Below, one piece after another: positions 1 through 9,548 of a stretch of 64,000 bases of DNA (positions are counted from its first letter, which is position 1; the number at the start of each line of letters is the position of its first letter). The translations under genes were made by a program, and so were the position numbers. This stretch comes from Escherichia phage UE-S5b: sequence record PP301341.1, one strand, 5' to 3'. The notes beneath the pieces were generated by a model that was not told the DNA's origin, searched no databases, and was given only the letters and a program-made list of their open reading frames with translations.

Positions 1-259
1 TATCCTTACAGAATTCTTCAATACTTTTCTTACGCAGAGTCTCAGTCATAGCTGTCTCCTCTGCCAGTTTATTAACAAAGGTATGCATTTCTAATTTAGT
101 ACGGATGGCTTGTTTCTCTGCCATAGTACTTACATATGAATTAAGCATACCTACTGCTTTAGTTGCTGTACCGAATGTATCTGCAACAGTAGTAGCAGCT
201 GAGTTAACAGTACCAAGTAAAGTTCCTGCGGTCATACGTACAGTAGCTTGAGTAGTCAT
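1..259 (-). CDS. hypothetical protein, partial (ORF runs off the window start)
   Basis: Minus-strand ATG at 259-257 preceded by GGAG about 9 nt upstream; open to position 1 with no stop (MTTQATVRMTAGTLLG...). Not in the ORF track because it is truncated by the window edge. Confidence 0.4.
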   Translation of the reverse strand, partial: MTTQATVRMTAGTLLGTVNSAATTVADTFGTATKAVGMLNSYVSTMAEKQAIRTKLEMHTFVNKLAEETAMTETLRKKSIEEFCKD

Positions 260-647
260 GATGATAGCTCCAATAGTTGATGATAGGACGACATGTCCAT
301 AACATGCGGAGCATGTGTAACGTGTAAGGTGGGGTAGGGTAGTGGCTACACCGTCAACATACCGGGGGGGNTNGTTGAGTGTAAGGGTGTAGCCCCAGCC
401 ACAACACTGCTGCTGTATATAGCTATCACAATTTTGACATGCAAAAATATTATAGGCACTATCTCTATAAGCAGATAACTTTGAGGTACTAACATGAAAG
501 ATGGTTGGGGTAATTACAATCCTACAGACCCTTAGAACTGGCTTCACTTTATTGCCTGTGCCTTCGCTATAGGATTCATAGGTATTGTACTCTTGTCACC
601 GGTTCTGCCTTATTTATAAATATTATGAGAAGGTATATATCTACCCT

Positions 648-920
648 CTATTTAGTTCTATATAACATCTTCTCTGCTCTATGCCCATTAACTGCTAAGA
701 AGTAGCATGGGCCAGATACATCGGATACCCTATCCCATGGTTCTAGTTTTATGAAGTTAACTATCATATTTCTAAGTAAGCACTCGCCTCTTAACCAGTG
801 ATAGTCTATATCGGAGTGAACATATACAGGTACATTGGGAATATTGTTACATATCCAATTCCATAGTATACCCTCTCCTACATGTAACCTTCCCATATCT
901 GATAGGAAATATAATCTCAT
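648..920 (-). CDS. hypothetical small protein, possible weak member of the paralog family
   Basis: 90-aa ORF packed head-to-tail with neighbouring minus-strand ORFs; N-terminus MRLYFLSDMG resembles MRIYMRVHD of 2454..2744. Confidence 0.4.
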   Translation of the reverse strand: MRLYFLSDMGRLHVGEGILWNWICNNIPNVPVYVHSDIDYHWLRGECLLRNMIVNFIKLEPWDRVSDVSGPCYFLAVNGHRAEKMLYRTK

Positions 921-921
921 G

Positions 922-1251
922 CTAATCCTTATAAGCAGTTAAATAGGAGGAAGGAATCTGGGAGAGGATGTGGTCATAGTAATAGCAATATGCTTCACTA
1001 TTGGCAGAGTTTATAGGCATACCTATGTAGTCAAACGCCCACAAACAGAAATGGTTGAGTTCGTGGATGAGTGTATGTAAAGGTTCCCTAAAGATACCAA
1101 TCAATACTCGATTGCCAGAATAAGAAGTATACCCCTTACAACCATCCAAGTCTGGCTCATGCCCTTTAAGTTTCTTATACTTTTTAATGAAGGTATCCTG
1201 GTCGAATACTACTTCTAACTGTACCGGGTAGGGTGATGTGTTTAGTTTCAT
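922..1251 (-). CDS. small HExxH-motif protein, putative zinc metallopeptidase-like
   Basis: 109-aa ORF containing LIHELNHFCLWAF (HExxH); stop/start abutting neighbours. Confidence 0.5.
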   Translation of the reverse strand: MKLNTSPYPVQLEVVFDQDTFIKKYKKLKGHEPDLDGCKGYTSYSGNRVLIGIFREPLHTLIHELNHFCLWAFDYIGMPINSANSEAYCYYYDHILSQIPSSYLTAYKD

Positions 1252-1571
1252 TAGAGACTCTCGTCGCTAGATAAATATGAGGTAGAAGGATAGAGGGTAA
1301 TAAGTCTACCAGTAAGGGTAGTTACTACCATAGGTTCACTCTCTGACAATATGTACACACTGGTGTGTTCCGGTATTTCTACGGAATCTACTATCTTAAT
1401 GAATTGGATAGGTTGCCCCAACATTAAGCAAGTACCTATGAACACATCTGCATCTTCACTTGGCTCATACAGGATGGTGGTAACTCTCCCCTTACCTGCC
1501 AGGATATTATCCAATGTATATGGAGACAAATAGCAAGTAGTAGCAAAGCTACTAAGGCAATACAGATGCAT
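1251..1571 (-). CDS. hypothetical protein
   Basis: 106-aa ORF, start codon overlaps the upstream stop (coupled arrangement). Confidence 0.4.
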   Translation of the reverse strand: MHLYCLSSFATTCYLSPYTLDNILAGKGRVTTILYEPSEDADVFIGTCLMLGQPIQFIKIVDSVEIPEHTSVYILSESEPMVVTTLTGRLITLYPSTSYLSSDESL

Positions 1572-1574
1572 ATC

Positions 1575-1952
1575 TTACTTCCTTATATAGTAGTAACAGT
1601 ATTCATCATTTACATACCGACTATCCCATTGGTAGTCATTAGATACCAACATATATGGGATAGGGTCACCTGCACTGTAGTTGGTATAGACAGAGGGTGG
1701 AATAATACATACAACCTTACGATCATTACCTGCTAAGAATAGTTGTCCCCTTACTTCATGGTAGTCCTCTAAGGTAGGAACCAGGATTACTTGCTGGGGG
1801 TTGCTGTTCATTACTTCTTCTAAAGAGAAGTCAGTTGTATACATAGATTCCCTTTCAGCAAAACTGGGGATGGTCATTATGAATTTCATGATTAATTTTC
1901 CTTCCTTTAGGAATAGGTCTGAAGTAAATGGAAAGTGTTTTATTAAAGACAT
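1575..1952 (-). CDS. hypothetical protein, paralog family member (start probably at an internal Met)
   Basis: Contains QQVILVPTLEDYHEVRGQLFLAGN, shared with 1855..2253 and 2454..2744; the track ORF overlaps the upstream gene by ~100 nt, so the true start is likely Met22 or Met26. Confidence 0.45.
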   Translation of the reverse strand: MSLIKHFPFTSDLFLKEGKLIMKFIMTIPSFAERESMYTTDFSLEEVMNSNPQQVILVPTLEDYHEVRGQLFLAGNDRKVVCIIPPSVYTNYSAGDPIPYMLVSNDYQWDSRYVNDEYCYYYIRK

Positions 1953-2253
1953 TATGGTCAGCTATCAATTCCCAACCAGGTATTTTATAGAACCTAACAC
2001 CAGGGAAAATCATACTAAAGTCGCTGTAAAAGGAGAGGTCATACACCTTTGGTTCAGTGAGTATCTTAGTATTGAGTTGCAGGTTGGATAGGAAAAGAGA
2101 ACCAATAACCTCGTGTGACTCTTCACAGTCAGGTAAGAATACTGTTTGCCATGGGGTAATGAACTTACTTACTACTTCTGGTTCCCCAAGGTAATAAGGT
2201 TCTTGATTACGAAGTATCCCAGTAATATCAATATCAAAAGCGTAGATGCTCAT
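1855..2253 (-). CDS. hypothetical protein, paralog family member
   Basis: 132-aa ORF with WQTVFLPDCEESHEVIGSLFLSN motif. Confidence 0.5.
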   Translation of the reverse strand: MSIYAFDIDITGILRNQEPYYLGEPEVVSKFITPWQTVFLPDCEESHEVIGSLFLSNLQLNTKILTEPKVYDLSFYSDFSMIFPGVRFYKIPGWELIADHNVFNKTLSIYFRPIPKGRKINHEIHNDHPQFC

Positions 2254-2453
2254 ATTTGCATACCTCCTGAAAAAGAAATGGGGTAGAGCCTCTCGACTCT
2301 ACCCCTTACCGTTTTCAATCACGGGTCAGTTCATCACCCTAGATACATGTGTATCGTTAGCCTACTAGGTAGGAAAGGAGCCGGGTAACCCTGACTGTAG
2401 AAGTTATTAACTCTTTACGAGTACCGCCACTGTCTACTAGGCGGCATGACTAA

Positions 2454-2744
2454 TCACATCGTCACCATCATCCGAACACTATCTTTGCTTCGCCTGACGG
2501 AGACACTATGAGGTAATTTTGTGAAGAACACAAGAGCTGAAAGTCTCTTTTCTAAAGAGTAAGTTTCTCTTGGTTCTAAGATCTTAATGCCTGGACGATT
2601 CTCTAACAGCATCATCCCAGCTAATTCATGGTAGGAATCTTCATCATGTGTAATGATAATATCATCTGAAAGAATACCAGCCTTGGTATGGTCTAGTTCT
2701 TTGTATTCATCTTTGGAGTCGTGGACTCTCATATAGATTCTCAA
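2454..2744 (-). CDS. hypothetical protein, paralog family member
   Basis: 96-aa ORF with IIITHDEDSYHELAGMMLLEN motif; first gene of the minus-strand block, divergent from the late module. Confidence 0.5.
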   Translation of the reverse strand: MRIYMRVHDSKDEYKELDHTKAGILSDDIIITHDEDSYHELAGMMLLENRPGIKILEPRETYSLEKRLSALVFFTKLPHSVSVRRSKDSVRMMVTM

Positions 2745-2915
2745 ATGTTACTCCTTTTAGGAATAGGGTCATCGGAACATTACATACTATTTAGTATCAT
2801 GAACTTTTTCTATATCATGACTAAAGTGTAACTGTATGGTATGGTTTCTTCAAGGGGTAACTCACCCCAAGAAAAGAATCTTCTTTAATAGACATAACTT
2901 TGTAGCGAGATAAGT

Positions 2916-3605
2916 ATGAGTGAACTAACTAAGCAGCAGATTGTTAATGCCCTACCTGCTAACTTCAAGAACAGTGTAACCCAGGAGTTGGTGGACACGA
3001 TCAACAACATTACCCAAGACCAACTGGTTGCTGAGTCCTTCCGTGAAAACTTTATCTCCTACTCTGGTGTAATGAAGGAAGGTAAGTTTAAGACACAGGA
3101 TTACATGAATGCAGTTCAGTATGTGACTTACAAACATATGGGCTATTCAAATAAGGAAGCCTACTTCAAAACATTCCCTAACCGACAGGCAGAACTTGTA
3201 GCACGAGGAACCAGTGAGAAAGATATCAGTGCTTATGTATCTGCTTACCATAGGGGTAAATTGGTTAACCTCATCATGGAACAAAGTTTGGTTCCAGTGT
3301 GGATTGTGAACCAGGACAATTATCAAAAGGCTATCAACGTTCAGGTTGAACTAATGACCACAGCAGCAAGTGAGAAAGTAAGATGTGATGCAGCTAACTC
3401 TATCCTTACTCACTTGGCTAAACCGAAAGACCAGGTAACGAANATCAATCTGGACTTNAGAGAGAACTCCGGNTTAACTGACCTCAAGGCAACACTTGCT
3501 GCATTGGCTGAACAGCAGATTAATGCAATCAATAGTGGAGTACCTACTAAAGAGGTTGCTGGTTCTAAACTAGTACGTGCAGATGAGGACATTACAGATG
3601 TCTGA
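2916..3605 (+). CDS. putative terminase small subunit / DNA-packaging accessory protein
   Basis: 229-aa ORF immediately upstream of, and coupled to, the terminase large subunit (ATGTCTGA overlap). Assignment is by position only. Confidence 0.45.
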   Translation: MSELTKQQIVNALPANFKNSVTQELVDTINNITQDQLVAESFRENFISYSGVMKEGKFKTQDYMNAVQYVTYKHMGYSNKEAYFKTFPNRQAELVARGTSEKDISAYVSAYHRGKLVNLIMEQSLVPVWIVNQDNYQKAINVQVELMTTAASEKVRCDAANSILTHLAKPKDQVTXINLDXRENSXLTDLKATLAALAEQQINAINSGVPTKEVAGSKLVRADEDITDV

Positions 3606-5193: not shown

Positions 5194-5904
5194 ATGCAAA
5201 AATTATCGGAAGTATACCGTGGCTTGGCACTAAGTACCTTGAAGGGTACTGGTGCAGTCACGGATGACAGATTGGGTATTGAGCCTGATAGTAAGCCTGA
5301 GATACTGGCAGCTATTAATGAAGGATTGGTTCGACTGCATAGTCGTTTCCCTCTCAGAACTAATAGTTGTATTGTGGAGATGAAAGAAGGGCGTACCGAT
5401 TATCCTCTTCAATCCAGATATGCTTACTCCAGATTTACTAAGCCCACTCTTGAGGTTCAGTATCCATACATCATGGATGGGTTCATGAAACCTTTCCAGG
5501 ATGATGTTATTAAAATCTTAAATGTATTTGATAACTCAGGGAACCGACGTAGACTGAACGATGATTCGGACCCTCGTGCTATCTTCACTCCACGGCCTGA
5601 TACTATTCAGTGTATGCGTCCTCGACACTTTGAGGCACTTAACGTAATGTATCAAGCCAAGCACCCAGTGCTTACGGGTGATGAAGAACAGGAAGTTGAT
5701 TTAGCTGATACGCTAATGACGGCACTTCATAACTGGGTGGGTTATCGTTACCACACCGGTTTGAATACTCCGGAAGCTAACGCTAAAGCAGCAGAGCATC
5801 TGCAAACATATGAAAGCATCTGTGGTGAGGTTGTTGATTACGACCTGGCTAATGGAAGTATTTCAATTACCGAAACTAAATTTGAACAACGAGGATGGCG
5901 ATGA
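5194..5904 (+). CDS. virion structural protein (tail/adaptor-associated, unknown function)
   Basis: 236-aa ORF between terminase and tailspike, overlapping the next gene start. Confidence 0.5.
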   Translation: MQKLSEVYRGLALSTLKGTGAVTDDRLGIEPDSKPEILAAINEGLVRLHSRFPLRTNSCIVEMKEGRTDYPLQSRYAYSRFTKPTLEVQYPYIMDGFMKPFQDDVIKILNVFDNSGNRRRLNDDSDPRAIFTPRPDTIQCMRPRHFEALNVMYQAKHPVLTGDEEQEVDLADTLMTALHNWVGYRYHTGLNTPEANAKAAEHLQTYESICGEVVDYDLANGSISITETKFEQRGWR

Positions 5905-8900
5905 ACGCACATACCCCCTTTGATGCAAATCAGGATTGGACCAATCCATATTGTCATAACAGTTCCAATGACCAAATGGTGGATGCACTGCTTGGTAATG
6001 CTTACCATGTGGTTCGTACTGTGTACTGCAACCTGGGTAATCTTAAACTCCTGTATGATTTCCTGAACCAGTATGGGATGGTCATCGGTGTAAACTCTGA
6101 AGAGGAATTGAAGGCATTATCCACGCAGGTTAAATATTCCCGTATCTACGGTTTCTCCCGTGCAGGTGACCGGCAGGTAACTGATTACTTGTACGTAGAA
6201 GGTGATCGTACTGGCATCATCCCAGATGACTCAGAAGCAACTGGTTCGTGGATTACTGTTGCTACTTCTGGTTCCAATGGTGGTGGTACTTCTTCCAGTG
6301 AAGGTGCTTATATTCCTTGGGTATACAGCAATGGTTCTGCTACTGGTGGGGAAACCACAATCAACGTACCAGATGGTACGGTGGGTGTACCTTTCATTAT
6401 TGTTAATGGCGACATGCAGTATGTAGGTCGTGGATTTGAGTTCAACGTAGACAGCCTGTCCGTAACTCTGGCNCAACCTTTAGAGGAAGGNGATGAAGTA
6501 GTATTCCTTCTGACTGGTGTTCCTGCTGTACCGGATAATCCTAACATTAATGACTGGATTCAGATCAATTGGTTGTACAACAATGGTGCTGCTGTAGGGG
6601 GTGAGCAGGTTATTGCTATTCCGTATACCTTCCAGTCTATTCCGGCTGTGTATAAGAATGGTCTTCGTTTGTATAAAGGATTAACTACTGAGTCTTATAC
6701 TGCTGACCCAGATAACCAACGTATTTTTCTTACCGAACCACTGACAACCAATGATCGTTTGATAGTACAGATTGGTGGTGAAGCACGAGTATTGGAAGCA
6801 ACAGATCGTACTCTACAGGAAGTGGCTCGTGCGGCTAATGTAAAAGATTCTGAGGTTATTCTCAGTACTAATACAGTACAATCCTTAAATAACAAAAAAG
6901 TTATTTATAATCCCGATAATCAGCAGATTTACGTTATTCCAGAATTACCAACTAATGTGTATATATCCAGCGTAGTTGGTAATATCCTTACATATACTCC
7001 AGGTAACATTCAGGTTGAGTTACTAACCAAAAAAGAAACTGACCAAAATACCCTATGGCGTAATCAGGGAGATGTCCGTGGTTGGGGTGTTAAAGGGGAC
7101 GCTGTGCATGATGATACAGTAGCATTAACGAACGTATTAAACGACACACCAGTTGGACAAAAGATTAATGGCAATGGGAAGACATATAAGGTCACATCCT
7201 TGCCTGATATTAGTCGATTCGTCAACACTCGTTTTGTTTATGAGCGTATTCCTGGTCAGCCGCTTTATTATGCCTCTGAAGAATTTGTTCAGGGCGAGCT
7301 TTTCAAAATAACGGACACCCCTTATTACAATGCGTGGCCACAGGATAAAGCGTTCGTTTACGATGATGTTATTTACTGCCCGTTCATGGCTAGTGATAGA
7401 CATGGGGTCAGCAGGCTGCATGTATCCTGGGTTCGTTCAGGGGATGACGGACAGACCTGGACAACGCCGGAATGGTTAACCGACCTACATCCTGATTACC
7501 CGACAGTTAACTACCACTGTATGAGTATGGGGGTGATGCGTAATCGTCTCTTTGCGATGATTGAGACACGTACTTTAGCATCTAACGCACTGGTGACCTG
7601 TGAGATATGGGACCGTCCTATGTCCCGTAATTACCATCCGACAGGTGGTATCACAAAAGCCGCTAATCAGCCTGTGGCTGTAATTACTATTCCTGACCAT
7701 GGATTGTTTGCCGGAGATTTTGTTAACTTCTCGAACTCTGGGGTGACTGGTGTTTCGGGGAATATGACTGTAACTTCAGTTATTGACCGCAACACATTTA
7801 CTGTCACCACGCCAAATCAACAGGAATCTGACCAAAATAACTCTACCAAAGTCTGGCATATGGGGACATCGTTCCACCAGTCACCTTGGCGTAAAACCAA
7901 CCTTGGACTGATTCCCATGGTTACCGAGGTTCACAGTTTTACCGCCATCAATAATGATTCATTTATGATGGGATATCACCAGGGTGATGCTGCTCCACGT
8001 GAAGTTGGTATGCTGTATTTCCCGGATGCATTTAACAATCCTGGGCATTATATAAAACGACGTATCCCTGCTGAATATGAGCCAGATGCGGCAGAACCCT
8101 GTGTTAAATATTTTGACGGTGTTCTTTATGTTGTAACCCGTGGAACTCGGTCGGATCGTCTGGGTAGTTCACTACATCGTAGTAACGATTTGGGTATATC
8201 CTGGCAATCATTGAGGTTCCCGAATAATGTCCACCACTCCACCCTGCCATTCGCTAAGGTAGGAAACGAACTCATTCTTTTTGGAACAGAACGTGCGGAC
8301 AACGAGTGGGAAGCAAACGCACCCGACCAGCGATATTTCAGTTCTTACCCGCGAACGTTTTACACACGAGTGAACTTAGACACCTGGAATCTGGATAATA
8401 CTCAGTGGGTGAATATCACTGACCAGATATATCAGGGTGGCATTGTCAACTCTGGCGTTGGTGTTGGCTCAGTGGTTGTTAAGGATAGTTATATCTATTA
8501 CATGTTCGGTGGGGAAGACCATCTGAACCCCTGGACATATGGAGATAACTCATCGAAAGACCCATTCAAATCAGATGGTCATCCATCAGATTTGTATTGC
8601 TACAAAATGAAGATTGGTTCAGACAATCGTGTTTCCAGGGATTTCAGATATGGTGCTGTACCTGACAGAGCTGTCCCCGTGTTTTTTGATACAAATGGGA
8701 TTCGCACTGTTCCTGCTCCAATGGAATTTACAGGAGATTTGGGTTTAGGTCATGTGACCCTTAGAGCCAGCACCAGTAGTAACATTCGCTCTGAAGTTTT
8801 AATGGAAGGTGAGTATGGGTTTATCGGGAAATCTGTACCGACTAATAACCCAGCAGGGCAGCGCATCATATTTTGCGGGGGAGACGGAACCAGTTCTTCT

Positions 8901-9548
8901 ACTGGTGCACAGATTACGCTTTACGGTGCGAGCAACACAGCTTCTCGCAGGATAGTTTACAACGGAAATGAACATCTGTTTCAGGGTGCTGATGTTAAGC
9001 CTTATAACGATAACGTCATTGCGCTTGGTGGACCAAGTAACCGTTTCACCACTGCATACCTCGGAAGTAACCCTATTGTTACTTCTAACGGGGAGAAGAA
9101 AACAGAGCCGGTAGTTTTTGATGATGCTTTCCTGGATGCCTGGGGTGACGTTCACTACATCATGTACCAGTGGTTAGATGCTGTTCAACTGAAAGGCAAT
9201 GATGCTCGTATTCACTTCGGGGTTATTGCTCAACAAATTCGTGATGTATTCATTGCACATGGTCTGATGGATGAAAACAGTACGAATTGTCGTTATGCTG
9301 TTCTGTGCTATGACAAGTATCCACGGATGACCGATACGGTATTTTCACACAATGAAATCGTTGAACACACTGACGAGGAGGGTAATGTCACTACTACGGA
9401 AGAACCTGTATACACCGAGGTGGTTATTCATGAAGAGGGTGAGGAGTGGGGTGTTCGGCCTGACGGAATTTTCTTTGCTGAAGCCGCTTATCAGAGAAGA
9501 AAACTGGAAAGAATCGAAGCCAGACTTTCTGCTCTTGAACAGAAGTAA
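5895..9548 (+). CDS. tailspike / tail fibre with C-terminal intramolecular chaperone (peptidase S74-like) domain
   Basis: 1217 aa; WRNQGDVRGWGVKGDAVHDDT (pectate-lyase-3-like start of a beta-helix); C-terminus PVVFDDAFLDAWGDVHYIMYQWLD...HFGVIAQQIRDVF matches the self-cleaving chaperone module of endosialidase-type tailspikes. Confidence 0.75.
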   Translation: MAMNAHTPFDANQDWTNPYCHNSSNDQMVDALLGNAYHVVRTVYCNLGNLKLLYDFLNQYGMVIGVNSEEELKALSTQVKYSRIYGFSRAGDRQVTDYLYVEGDRTGIIPDDSEATGSWITVATSGSNGGGTSSSEGAYIPWVYSNGSATGGETTINVPDGTVGVPFIIVNGDMQYVGRGFEFNVDSLSVTLXQPLEEXDEVVFLLTGVPAVPDNPNINDWIQINWLYNNGAAVGGEQVIAIPYTFQSIPAVYKNGLRLYKGLTTESYTADPDNQRIFLTEPLTTNDRLIVQIGGEARVLEATDRTLQEVARAANVKDSEVILSTNTVQSLNNKKVIYNPDNQQIYVIPELPTNVYISSVVGNILTYTPGNIQVELLTKKETDQNTLWRNQGDVRGWGVKGDAVHDDTVALTNVLNDTPVGQKINGNGKTYKVTSLPDISRFVNTRFVYERIPGQPLYYASEEFVQGELFKITDTPYYNAWPQDKAFVYDDVIYCPFMASDRHGVSRLHVSWVRSGDDGQTWTTPEWLTDLHPDYPTVNYHCMSMGVMRNRLFAMIETRTLASNALVTCEIWDRPMSRNYHPTGGITKAANQPVAVITIPDHGLFAGDFVNFSNSGVTGVSGNMTVTSVIDRNTFTVTTPNQQESDQNNSTKVWHMGTSFHQSPWRKTNLGLIPMVTEVHSFTAINNDSFMMGYHQGDAAPREVGMLYFPDAFNNPGHYIKRRIPAEYEPDAAEPCVKYFDGVLYVVTRGTRSDRLGSSLHRSNDLGISWQSLRFPNNVHHSTLPFAKVGNELILFGTERADNEWEANAPDQRYFSSYPRTFYTRVNLDTWNLDNTQWVNITDQIYQGGIVNSGVGVGSVVVKDSYIYYMFGGEDHLNPWTYGDNSSKDPFKSDGHPSDLYCYKMKIGSDNRVSRDFRYGAVPDRAVPVFFDTNGIRTVPAPMEFTGDLGLGHVTLRASTSSNIRSEVLMEGEYGFIGKSVPTNNPAGQRIIFCGGDGTSSSTGAQITLYGASNTASRRIVYNGNEHLFQGADVKPYNDNVIALGGPSNRFTTAYLGSNPIVTSNGEKKTEPVVFDDAFLDAWGDVHYIMYQWLDAVQLKGNDARIHFGVIAQQIRDVFIAHGLMDENSTNCRYAVLCYDKYPRMTDTVFSHNEIVEHTDEEGNVTTTEEPVYTEVVIHEEGEEWGVRPDGIFFAEAAYQRRKLERIEARLSALEQK

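Follow-up and report, generated by a model that had tools for sequence, protein, structure and literature searches.

Background

The closest described relatives of the genes considered here are gp70 and gp71 of coliphage N4 and gp70, gp71, gp71.1 and gp71.2 of phage G7C, all of which are uncharacterised open reading frames (ORFs). Their counterpart in Escherichia phage UE-S5b (sequence record PP301341.1) is a block of six small minus-strand ORFs, named A to F, at positions 648 to 2744 of a 64,000-nucleotide stretch of DNA; "the window" means this whole stretch. This block makes up the right-end accessory module of a G7C-like relative of N4 and occupies the interval from the small terminase gene (TerS) to the right terminal repeat. 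It shares with N4 and G7C this position, the orientation, a core protein motif and a conserved spacer with a terminator, and A and B are orthologous to gp70 and gp71. N4 carries two copies of the gene family, whereas the window carries five (A, B, C, D and F) plus a predicted mini-zincin (E).

The PHROG database keeps the array members apart in four families (7213, 9160, 11661 and 12099), and no paper that we found describes gp70 as a paralog of gp71. Clusters of small, fast-evolving and dispensable genes are known from phage genome ends, such as the SPO1 host-takeover module, the T7 class I genes and the anti-CRISPR or anti-defence islands. The array resembles them in being short, tightly packed, variable among close relatives, often pseudogenised and devoid of homologues beyond its phage group. 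Unlike them, it consists of members of one paralogous family, sits at the genome end that enters the cell last in N4, and has no associated regulator gene. From the comparisons reported below, we conclude that the array is an unnamed, lineage-specific accessory gene family with a cassette mechanism.

Layout of the array

All six ORFs were recovered at the positions given in the sequence-only reading of this DNA. Their features are as follows.

Gene A, 2454..2744, minus strand: 96 amino acids (aa); TTG start 6 nucleotides (nt) after AAGGAG; motif DEDSYHELAGMMLLEN; orthologue of N4 gp70 and G7C gp70; phrog_7213.
Gene B, 1855..2253, minus strand: 132 aa; motif CEESHEVIGSLFLSN; orthologue of N4 gp71 and G7C gp71; phrog_9160.
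Gene C, 1575..1889, minus strand: 104 aa; motif LEDYHEVRGQLFLAGN; G7C gp71.1; phrog_11661.
Gene D, 1251..1571, minus strand: 106 aa; motif SEDADVFIGTCLMLGQ, with AD for HE; G7C gp71.2; phrog_12099.
Gene E, 922..1251, minus strand: 109 aa; HELNH at residues 63-67 and conserved Glu86; phrog_1365; mobile cassette.
Gene F, 648..920, minus strand: 90 aa; motif DIDYHWLRGECLLRN; no PHROG match.

The TTG start of A is also the choice of gene callers in public data. A and B are set apart by a terminator, and B opens a tightly packed run that continues to F, in which neighbours overlap or are separated by gaps of 1-3 nt. B and C overlap by 35 nt, the start of C lying within the end of B; a start of C at 1952 is an over-extension. 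Such packing suggests that B to F form a single translationally coupled operon. Ribosome-binding sites are present for the array genes. F is a rare cassette, with close orthologues in few relatives only.

Five genes of one family

The sequence-only reading had noticed a common motif in the three adjacent ORFs A, B and C. The motifs had been read correctly, and the likeness exceeds the shuffled background when Smith-Waterman scores are compared with those of 500 shuffles: z is 9.2 for B-C (0/500), 4.4 for A-F, 3.7 for C-F, 3.5 for both A-B and A-C, and 3.0 for D-F. For two further small ORFs, weaker similarity at the N-terminus had been proposed. These two, D and F, do belong to the family, but the shared region is a core of 45-70 residues and not the N-terminus alone.

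Profile comparison points in the same direction. Ortholog profiles were gathered from 13 IMG/VR loci plus GenBank records, where further subfamilies (f9, F2 with ILVPDEQTLHEVKG, and F3) occur in relatives of the phage. With hhalign, B-C reached 85% (E-value 6e-6), C-F 77%, A-F 76% and A-f9 54%, while D-F and D-f9 came to about 20% (E-value 1e-3); D is the most diverged member within the window. The four control families (E, gp1, f5 and f12) all stayed at or below 3%. A hidden Markov model (HMM) of the family was then searched against 1434 ORFs, comprising the loci and the whole 64-kb window, and within the window it found A, B, C, D and F only. When each subfamily was left out of the model in turn, its window member was still recovered, with E-values of 2.3e-8 (A), 2.2e-8 (B), 1.3e-7 (C), 3.3e-4 (D) and 2.3e-8 (F), and the best ORF elsewhere in the window had an E-value of at least 0.45. 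Among ORFs that were not in the seed, N4 gp70 matched at 2.9e-12 and N4 gp71 at 4.1e-9. In addition, A, B and C are connected by cross-hits to phrog_16338.

On this evidence A, B, C, D and F are one family of small proteins whose members are very diverged paralogs, and N4 gp70 and gp71 are its ancestral pair. The orthology of A and B to that pair follows from the family-profile matches together with the annotation of G7C, in which A is gp70 and B is gp71.

Pairwise identities among the paralogs are merely 14-25%, which is the one point in favour of the view that the shared motif is a chance similarity or that the ORFs are not real genes. This view is refuted by the rest of the data and has next to no chance of being right: the shuffle, profile-profile and leave-one-out tests are all significant, the ratio of non-synonymous to synonymous substitution rates (dN/dS) is well below one in the minus-strand frames (see below), the genes have ribosome-binding sites and are tightly packed, and orthologues exist in more than 50 phage genomes. 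An origin of the motif in a nucleotide-level repeat was rejected as well, the motif-coding stretches of the three ORFs differing by eye at many synonymous positions. Likeness at the DNA level is restricted to the upstream ribosome-binding regions of A and C (83% over 24 nt).

The conserved core

The core of the family runs in the order hydrophobic strand, acidic turn, helix with an invariant Gly, Asn/Gly cap, second strand and Pro. Residue conservation was counted over 99 non-redundant members. The Gly of ..HEvrGqlfL.. is the sole invariant residue (99/99), followed by the Asn/Gly six residues past it (98/99) and an acidic residue seven before it (85/99); both the Gly and the Asn/Gly are present in all five window paralogs.

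It had been suggested that the conserved His-Glu pair of the paralogs is itself catalytic or metal-binding, and this suggestion did not hold up. It is true that H-E stands in A, B, C and about two thirds of the family (H in 66/99, E in 67/99), with F retaining His only (Y-H-W). Nevertheless, the pair is replaced by A-D in the whole of subfamilies D and f9 and reads H-Y in N4 gp70 and H-A in N4 gp71, and a second conserved ligand is absent. Conservation limited to Gly and Asn/Gly is a structural and not a catalytic signature, so it is very unlikely that the paralogs are small enzymes or metal binders using this pair.

By inspection, no signal peptide or transmembrane segment is evident in the paralogs. 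Their isoelectric points (pI) lie between 4.3 and 9.2 and their hydropathy index (GRAVY) is about 0 or below; this mixed charge rules out uniform DNA mimics of the anti-restriction type represented by Ocr and ArdA.

Distribution, copy number and selection

The array was found at the same place, between TerS and the right repeat and co-oriented with gp1, in the window, N4, G7C, KP8 and the relative L019. Its copy number is variable. There are two family members in N4, four in G7C, five each in the window, Klebsiella phage KP8 and Shigella phage Moo19 (gp1, 2, 4, 5 and 6 of the latter), four or five in Jgk1, six in L019 and at least six in L018. An exhaustive HMMER profile search of 1.84 billion representative proteins returned 14 clusters at an E-value of 1e-3 or below, and those contigs of matched clusters that were looked up proved to be N4-like arrays in the same position. 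By these searches, the family is restricted to N4-type enterobacterial phages. Gene A was present in every Enquatrovirinae-type locus examined (L001-L013, N4, KP8 and L019), and no family match was found in L014 and L015, the two most distant TerS loci. Two orthologues of A (P0006 and P0026) are labelled Enterococcus faecium, the longest carrying contig being 2.76 Mb, which suggests contamination or mis-assembly; P0033, a further orthologue, carries an E. coli label and lies on a 72.5-kb contig that looks like a phage contig in a bacterial assembly.

The array genes evolve fast at the protein level. Their dN/dS is 0.15-0.30 with dN of 0.11-0.31, compared with a dN/dS of 0.03 and a dN of 0.009 for TerS, so that the amino-acid divergence of the array proteins is 12-30 times that of TerS in the same phages. 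Ratios of this size in the minus-strand frames indicate purifying selection on real genes. The dS of the array genes is also 2-3 times that of TerS, which suggests exchange with more distant lineages. The array genes are under purifying but relaxed selection.

Individual copies are dispensable, and broken or missing ones are seen among the relatives. In phage UE-S5a, a perfect 148-bp tandem duplication in D (L001 1424-1719 against window 1251-1571) disrupts the reading frame, so that D is annotated as two ORFs; this may be either a real inactivation or an assembly artefact. D is also split in L006, L012 lacks B to D and retains A and E only, and truncated family variants occur in metagenomes. 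The earlier description of the block as tandem, diverged paralogs in an accessory region of the phage is therefore well borne out by variable copy number, fast protein evolution and pseudogenised copies in relatives.

The fixed site and the persistence of A bring in the main alternative, namely that the family, or at least the universal A and B, serves a core process tied to the location and is not directed at the host. Candidate processes would be the processing or duplication of the terminal repeat, the initiation of packaging, or the control of transcription into gp1 and gp2 in concatemers. In its favour, N4, G7C, KP8, Moo19 and metagenomic relatives all have the array at one fixed site, flanked by TerS and the right repeat, A belongs to all the Enquatrovirinae-type loci listed above (L014 and L015 being without a match), and the TerS-A intergenic region, the A-B spacer and the element before the repeat, described below, are conserved down to N4 or near it. 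Against these points stand a copy number that ranges from 2 to at least 6, the survival of A and E only in L012, frameshifted copies in otherwise intact phages, and the divergence relative to TerS. The narrow range also counts: the profile search gave 14 clusters only, and no member was found in the one non-Enquatrovirinae Schitoviridae locus examined, that of Pectobacterium phage Possum, so that phages of the same genome-end biology appear to exist without the family. We consider a core role unlikely on balance.

Joint sequence and cassette exchange

The order A-B-C-D is stable among the relatives, and the segment from D to the repeat is variable. It holds nothing in G7C, E in Bp4, F3-E in ECBP1, f9-F2 in pSb-1, f9-E-f9' in IME11 and E-F in the window. 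Alignment of G7C to the window covers 3000-1285 and 478-3, which makes E and F an insertion of about 800 bp, relative to G7C, just before the repeat. Two DNA features of the window bear on how such segments may be exchanged.

Perfect joint copy, 928..954, minus strand: CCTTCCTCCTATTTAACTGCTTATAAG, at the 3' end of E, encoding PSSYLTAYK.
Conserved element of about 100 nt, 400..495, minus strand: a partial joint copy, then CTATAATATTTTTGCATGTCAAAATTGTGATAGCT.

The element at the distal end consists of CCTCCTATTTAACTGCTTATAAG, about 10 nt and CTATAATATTTTTGCATGTCAAAATTGTGATAGCT, and it is found in G7C, Bp4, L012, L018, L020 and the window; in L017 it lies at 3170-3258. In G7C it abuts the start of the right terminal repeat. 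Its first 27 nt encode the C-terminal tail PSSYLTAYK(D) of the last array gene, whichever gene that is: D in G7C, E in Bp4 and L012, F2 in pSb-1 and others. Three copies of this joint occur in the window: the one at the 3' end of D is diverged, the one at the end of E is perfect, and the one past F is partial and runs into the full element. Three copies are the footprint expected from successive cassette addition by recombination at the joint. Tandem duplication has expanded the family, cassettes are gained and lost at the repeat-proximal end, probably through recombination at the conserved joint of about 27 nt, and E arrived in the array as a cassette. The element also contains TTAACT-N18-TATAAT, and it could be a gp1 promoter, a packaging or end-processing signal, or a mere recombination joint.

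An ORF of about 44 aa (f15, MWYV.VKG...) lies past the array in L004 (2553-2687), L006 and L008 and is absent from the window; it resembles N4 gp72 (MWYITVKGLSEPV...).

Protein E

The HExxH motif of the 109-aa protein E (LIHELNHFCLWAF) had been read correctly; it is conserved, and the modelled fold is zincin-like. E is not a member of the paralog family by any sequence comparison made here: its shuffle z against the paralogs is at most 2.1, hhalign gives at most 1% against every subfamily, and the family HMM does not match it. E matches phrog_1365, a family of phage proteins with no assigned function, over residues 1-102 (E-value 1.3e-28), and has no match in the Pfam and NCBIfam scans. A PDB profile search returned DsbD at an E-value of 1.4, which was rejected as a chance match.

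The AlphaFold2 model of E has a mean confidence (pLDDT) of 91.6 and a pTM of 0.83. Its topology is strand, helix, two strands, a long helix (57-75) with H63-E64-L-N-H67, and a second helix (85-96) with Glu86. The gluzincin pattern consists of HExxH plus a Glu 19 residues past the second His. Distant homologues with 26-31% identity come from unrelated phage families (Possum, Enterobacter phage phiEap-2, Salmonella phage CRW-SP2 and Achromobacter phage Axy21); in these E64, H67 and E86 are invariant and H63 is kept in 7/8, while the two cysteines are not conserved. Among close homologues, H63 or E64 is lost in 2 of 37. A Foldseek search against predicted viral structures gave 22 matches at an E-value of 1e-3 or below, mostly unnamed, and the named models just beyond those 22 were PolyVal metallopeptidase, SprT-like, Metalloprotease and IrrE. 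The model and its conserved residues point to E being a mini-gluzincin (HExxH plus Glu86, the candidate third metal ligand on the following helix), comparable to the minimal zincin metallopeptidases, that is, the minigluzincins, SprT-like proteins, the PolyVal metallopeptidase domain and the IrrE/ImmA/CapP family. It is probably an active zinc peptidase with a target of its own.

Homologues of E are found between TerS and TerL in Possum, between DNA polymerase and helicase in phiEap-2, past an exonuclease in CRW-SP2, and past a lysin near the right end in Axy21. In Possum (L023 1622-2163), two small genes, one of them the E homologue, lie between the small and large terminase genes, an unusual cargo site. 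Contexts as varied as these mark E as a mobile single gene and not a fixed partner of the array. One could still suppose that E works with the paralogs in a single system, the paralogs being, for instance, substrates, pro-proteins or inhibitors of the protease, given that E is embedded in the arrays of the window, Bp4, ECBP1, IME11, KP8, L018 and L019 and, in the window, shows translational coupling to D and F. Such a system is highly improbable, however, as the arrays of N4, G7C, pSb-1 and others lack E, and its homologues in Possum, phiEap-2, CRW-SP2 and Axy21 occur without a family member.

Non-coding elements

Two non-coding regions flank gene A.

Structured spacer past A, 2254..2453, minus strand: about 200 nt, with an invariant CCGCC..GGCGG hairpin and an intrinsic terminator at 2305-2280.
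Divergent intergenic region between A and TerS, 2745..2915, no strand assigned: a GGGGT-GAGTT-ACCCC hairpin, conserved even with N4.

The spacer is conserved in G7C-like phages, in N4 (as the gp70-gp71 gap), in KP8 and in L019. Its terminator stem shows compensatory substitutions, its RNAfold z is -3.2, and double changes are seen in 16/40 RNAalifold pairs. Rfam and tRNA scans of window 1-3200, the spacer included, gave no match. The spacer is a candidate structured 3' untranslated region and may alternatively be an unannotated small RNA. The intergenic region between A and TerS has a mean column identity of 86% in nine phages including N4. Its hairpin is flanked by TTCTTTTCTT and TTGAAGAAA, and an ACTTTAG block within the region is present in duplicate in N4. 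The late promoter of the terminase operon and the promoter of A presumably lie here. Upstream of A stands a conserved GTTACACTTTAGTC block of which the window has no second copy, and a sigma-70 scan gave nothing useful.

Phage identity and genomic setting

Bases 1-3000 of the window share 99.9% identity with Escherichia phage UE-S5a and 85-92% with Bp4, G7C, St11Ph5, pSb-1 and other Gamaleyavirus members. By this likeness, the window belongs to Gamaleyavirus (Schitoviridae, Enquatrovirinae) and is a G7C-like relative of N4. On the plus strand from 2916, the genes run in the order small terminase, large terminase, adaptor and endosialidase tailspike; block A-F diverges from the small terminase gene and is co-oriented with gp1, which marks the end of the array.

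N4 gp1 homologue, N-terminal part, 2..268, minus strand: cut by the window edge.

The gp1 homologue of L019 carries PF26891 (Phage_N4_Gp1). The gene encodes a cofactor of the phage RNA polymerase RNAPII, and in G7C, whose ends are annotated (with C and D as gp71.1 and gp71.2), the gp1 region falls within the terminal repeat, which is 1160 bp long and starts about 60 nt past D. The N4 record finishes on the right with gp70, gp71 and gp72, and the left-end sequence is not repeated after them.

Some side observations concern the records themselves. In UE-S5a, a plus-strand coding sequence at 6-251 in the gp1 region is probably mis-called. Ambiguous bases (N) at about 370-380 and 3400-3500 of the window lead to X residues in the translations of TerS and of the tailspike at 5895-9548. 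The latter is a 1217-aa plus-strand protein annotated as an endosialidase in UE-S5a. Endosialidase tailspikes point to K1-capsule specificity, which suggests that the phage is K1-specific.

What the paralogs may do

We propose that the paralogs are non-enzymatic cytoplasmic binding proteins, each of which would probably target a different macromolecule of the host (or of the phage), with strain-dependent host modulation or counter-defence as the outcome. The paralogs are small, diverge fast, vary in copy number, are frequently lost, have no invariant polar residue and are confined to a single phage group, and these features fit the proposal. The joint claim, the evolutionary picture together with an accessory function in binding host or phage macromolecules, has in our estimate a probability of about 0.5. 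The functional part taken alone, that the paralogs are accessory binders with distinct targets for each paralog, is tentative.

Several results weigh against this proposal. The dN/dS ratios are below one for whole genes, and positive selection was not detected at that level. No Pfam, NCBIfam, PADLOC or PDB sequence match, and no fold match, links the family to an activity: scans of the six window proteins plus 20 family members with Pfam, NCBIfam and the defence-system library PADLOC gave isolated sub-threshold matches and no recurrent family, and PDB profile searches for the paralog family gave nothing. Literature searches, also those on Gamaleyavirus paralogs, Schitoviridae transcriptomes and CRISPRi-ART data on N4, found no paper on gp70 or gp71 and no functional information on the family. 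A and B are kept in nearly every relative with conserved non-coding elements on their flanks, which could indicate a core and not an accessory role for these two. Finally, the left end of the N4 genome enters the cell first and the end with the array enters last (PMC4496689); action in the first minutes of infection is consequently unlikely, and the host-takeover reading that had been put forward is tempered. The anti-defence reading put forward with it is a plausible hypothesis.

A bolder version would see the array as a modular arsenal for counter-defence and host range in N4-type coliphages. Here the gp70/gp71 scaffold would have been duplicated up to at least six times and retargeted, cassettes including the mini-protease would have been captured at the joint beside the terminal repeat, and a structured RNA past A would regulate the operon, so that the locus would naturally shuffle genes for host interaction. 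This extended picture is doubtful.

Significance

The four separate hypothetical PHROGs, together with unclassified ORFs, become one expanding family derived from N4 gp70/gp71, which simplifies the annotation, and the joint sequence accounts for the differences among close relatives at this place. N4-like phages are used in therapy cocktails and serve as models for transcription and genome ejection, and for them the array is a compact candidate set of two to six or more genes per phage. Should the proteins indeed neutralise host factors, they would provide a new inhibitor scaffold; otherwise the array would be an ordinary lineage-specific gene family.

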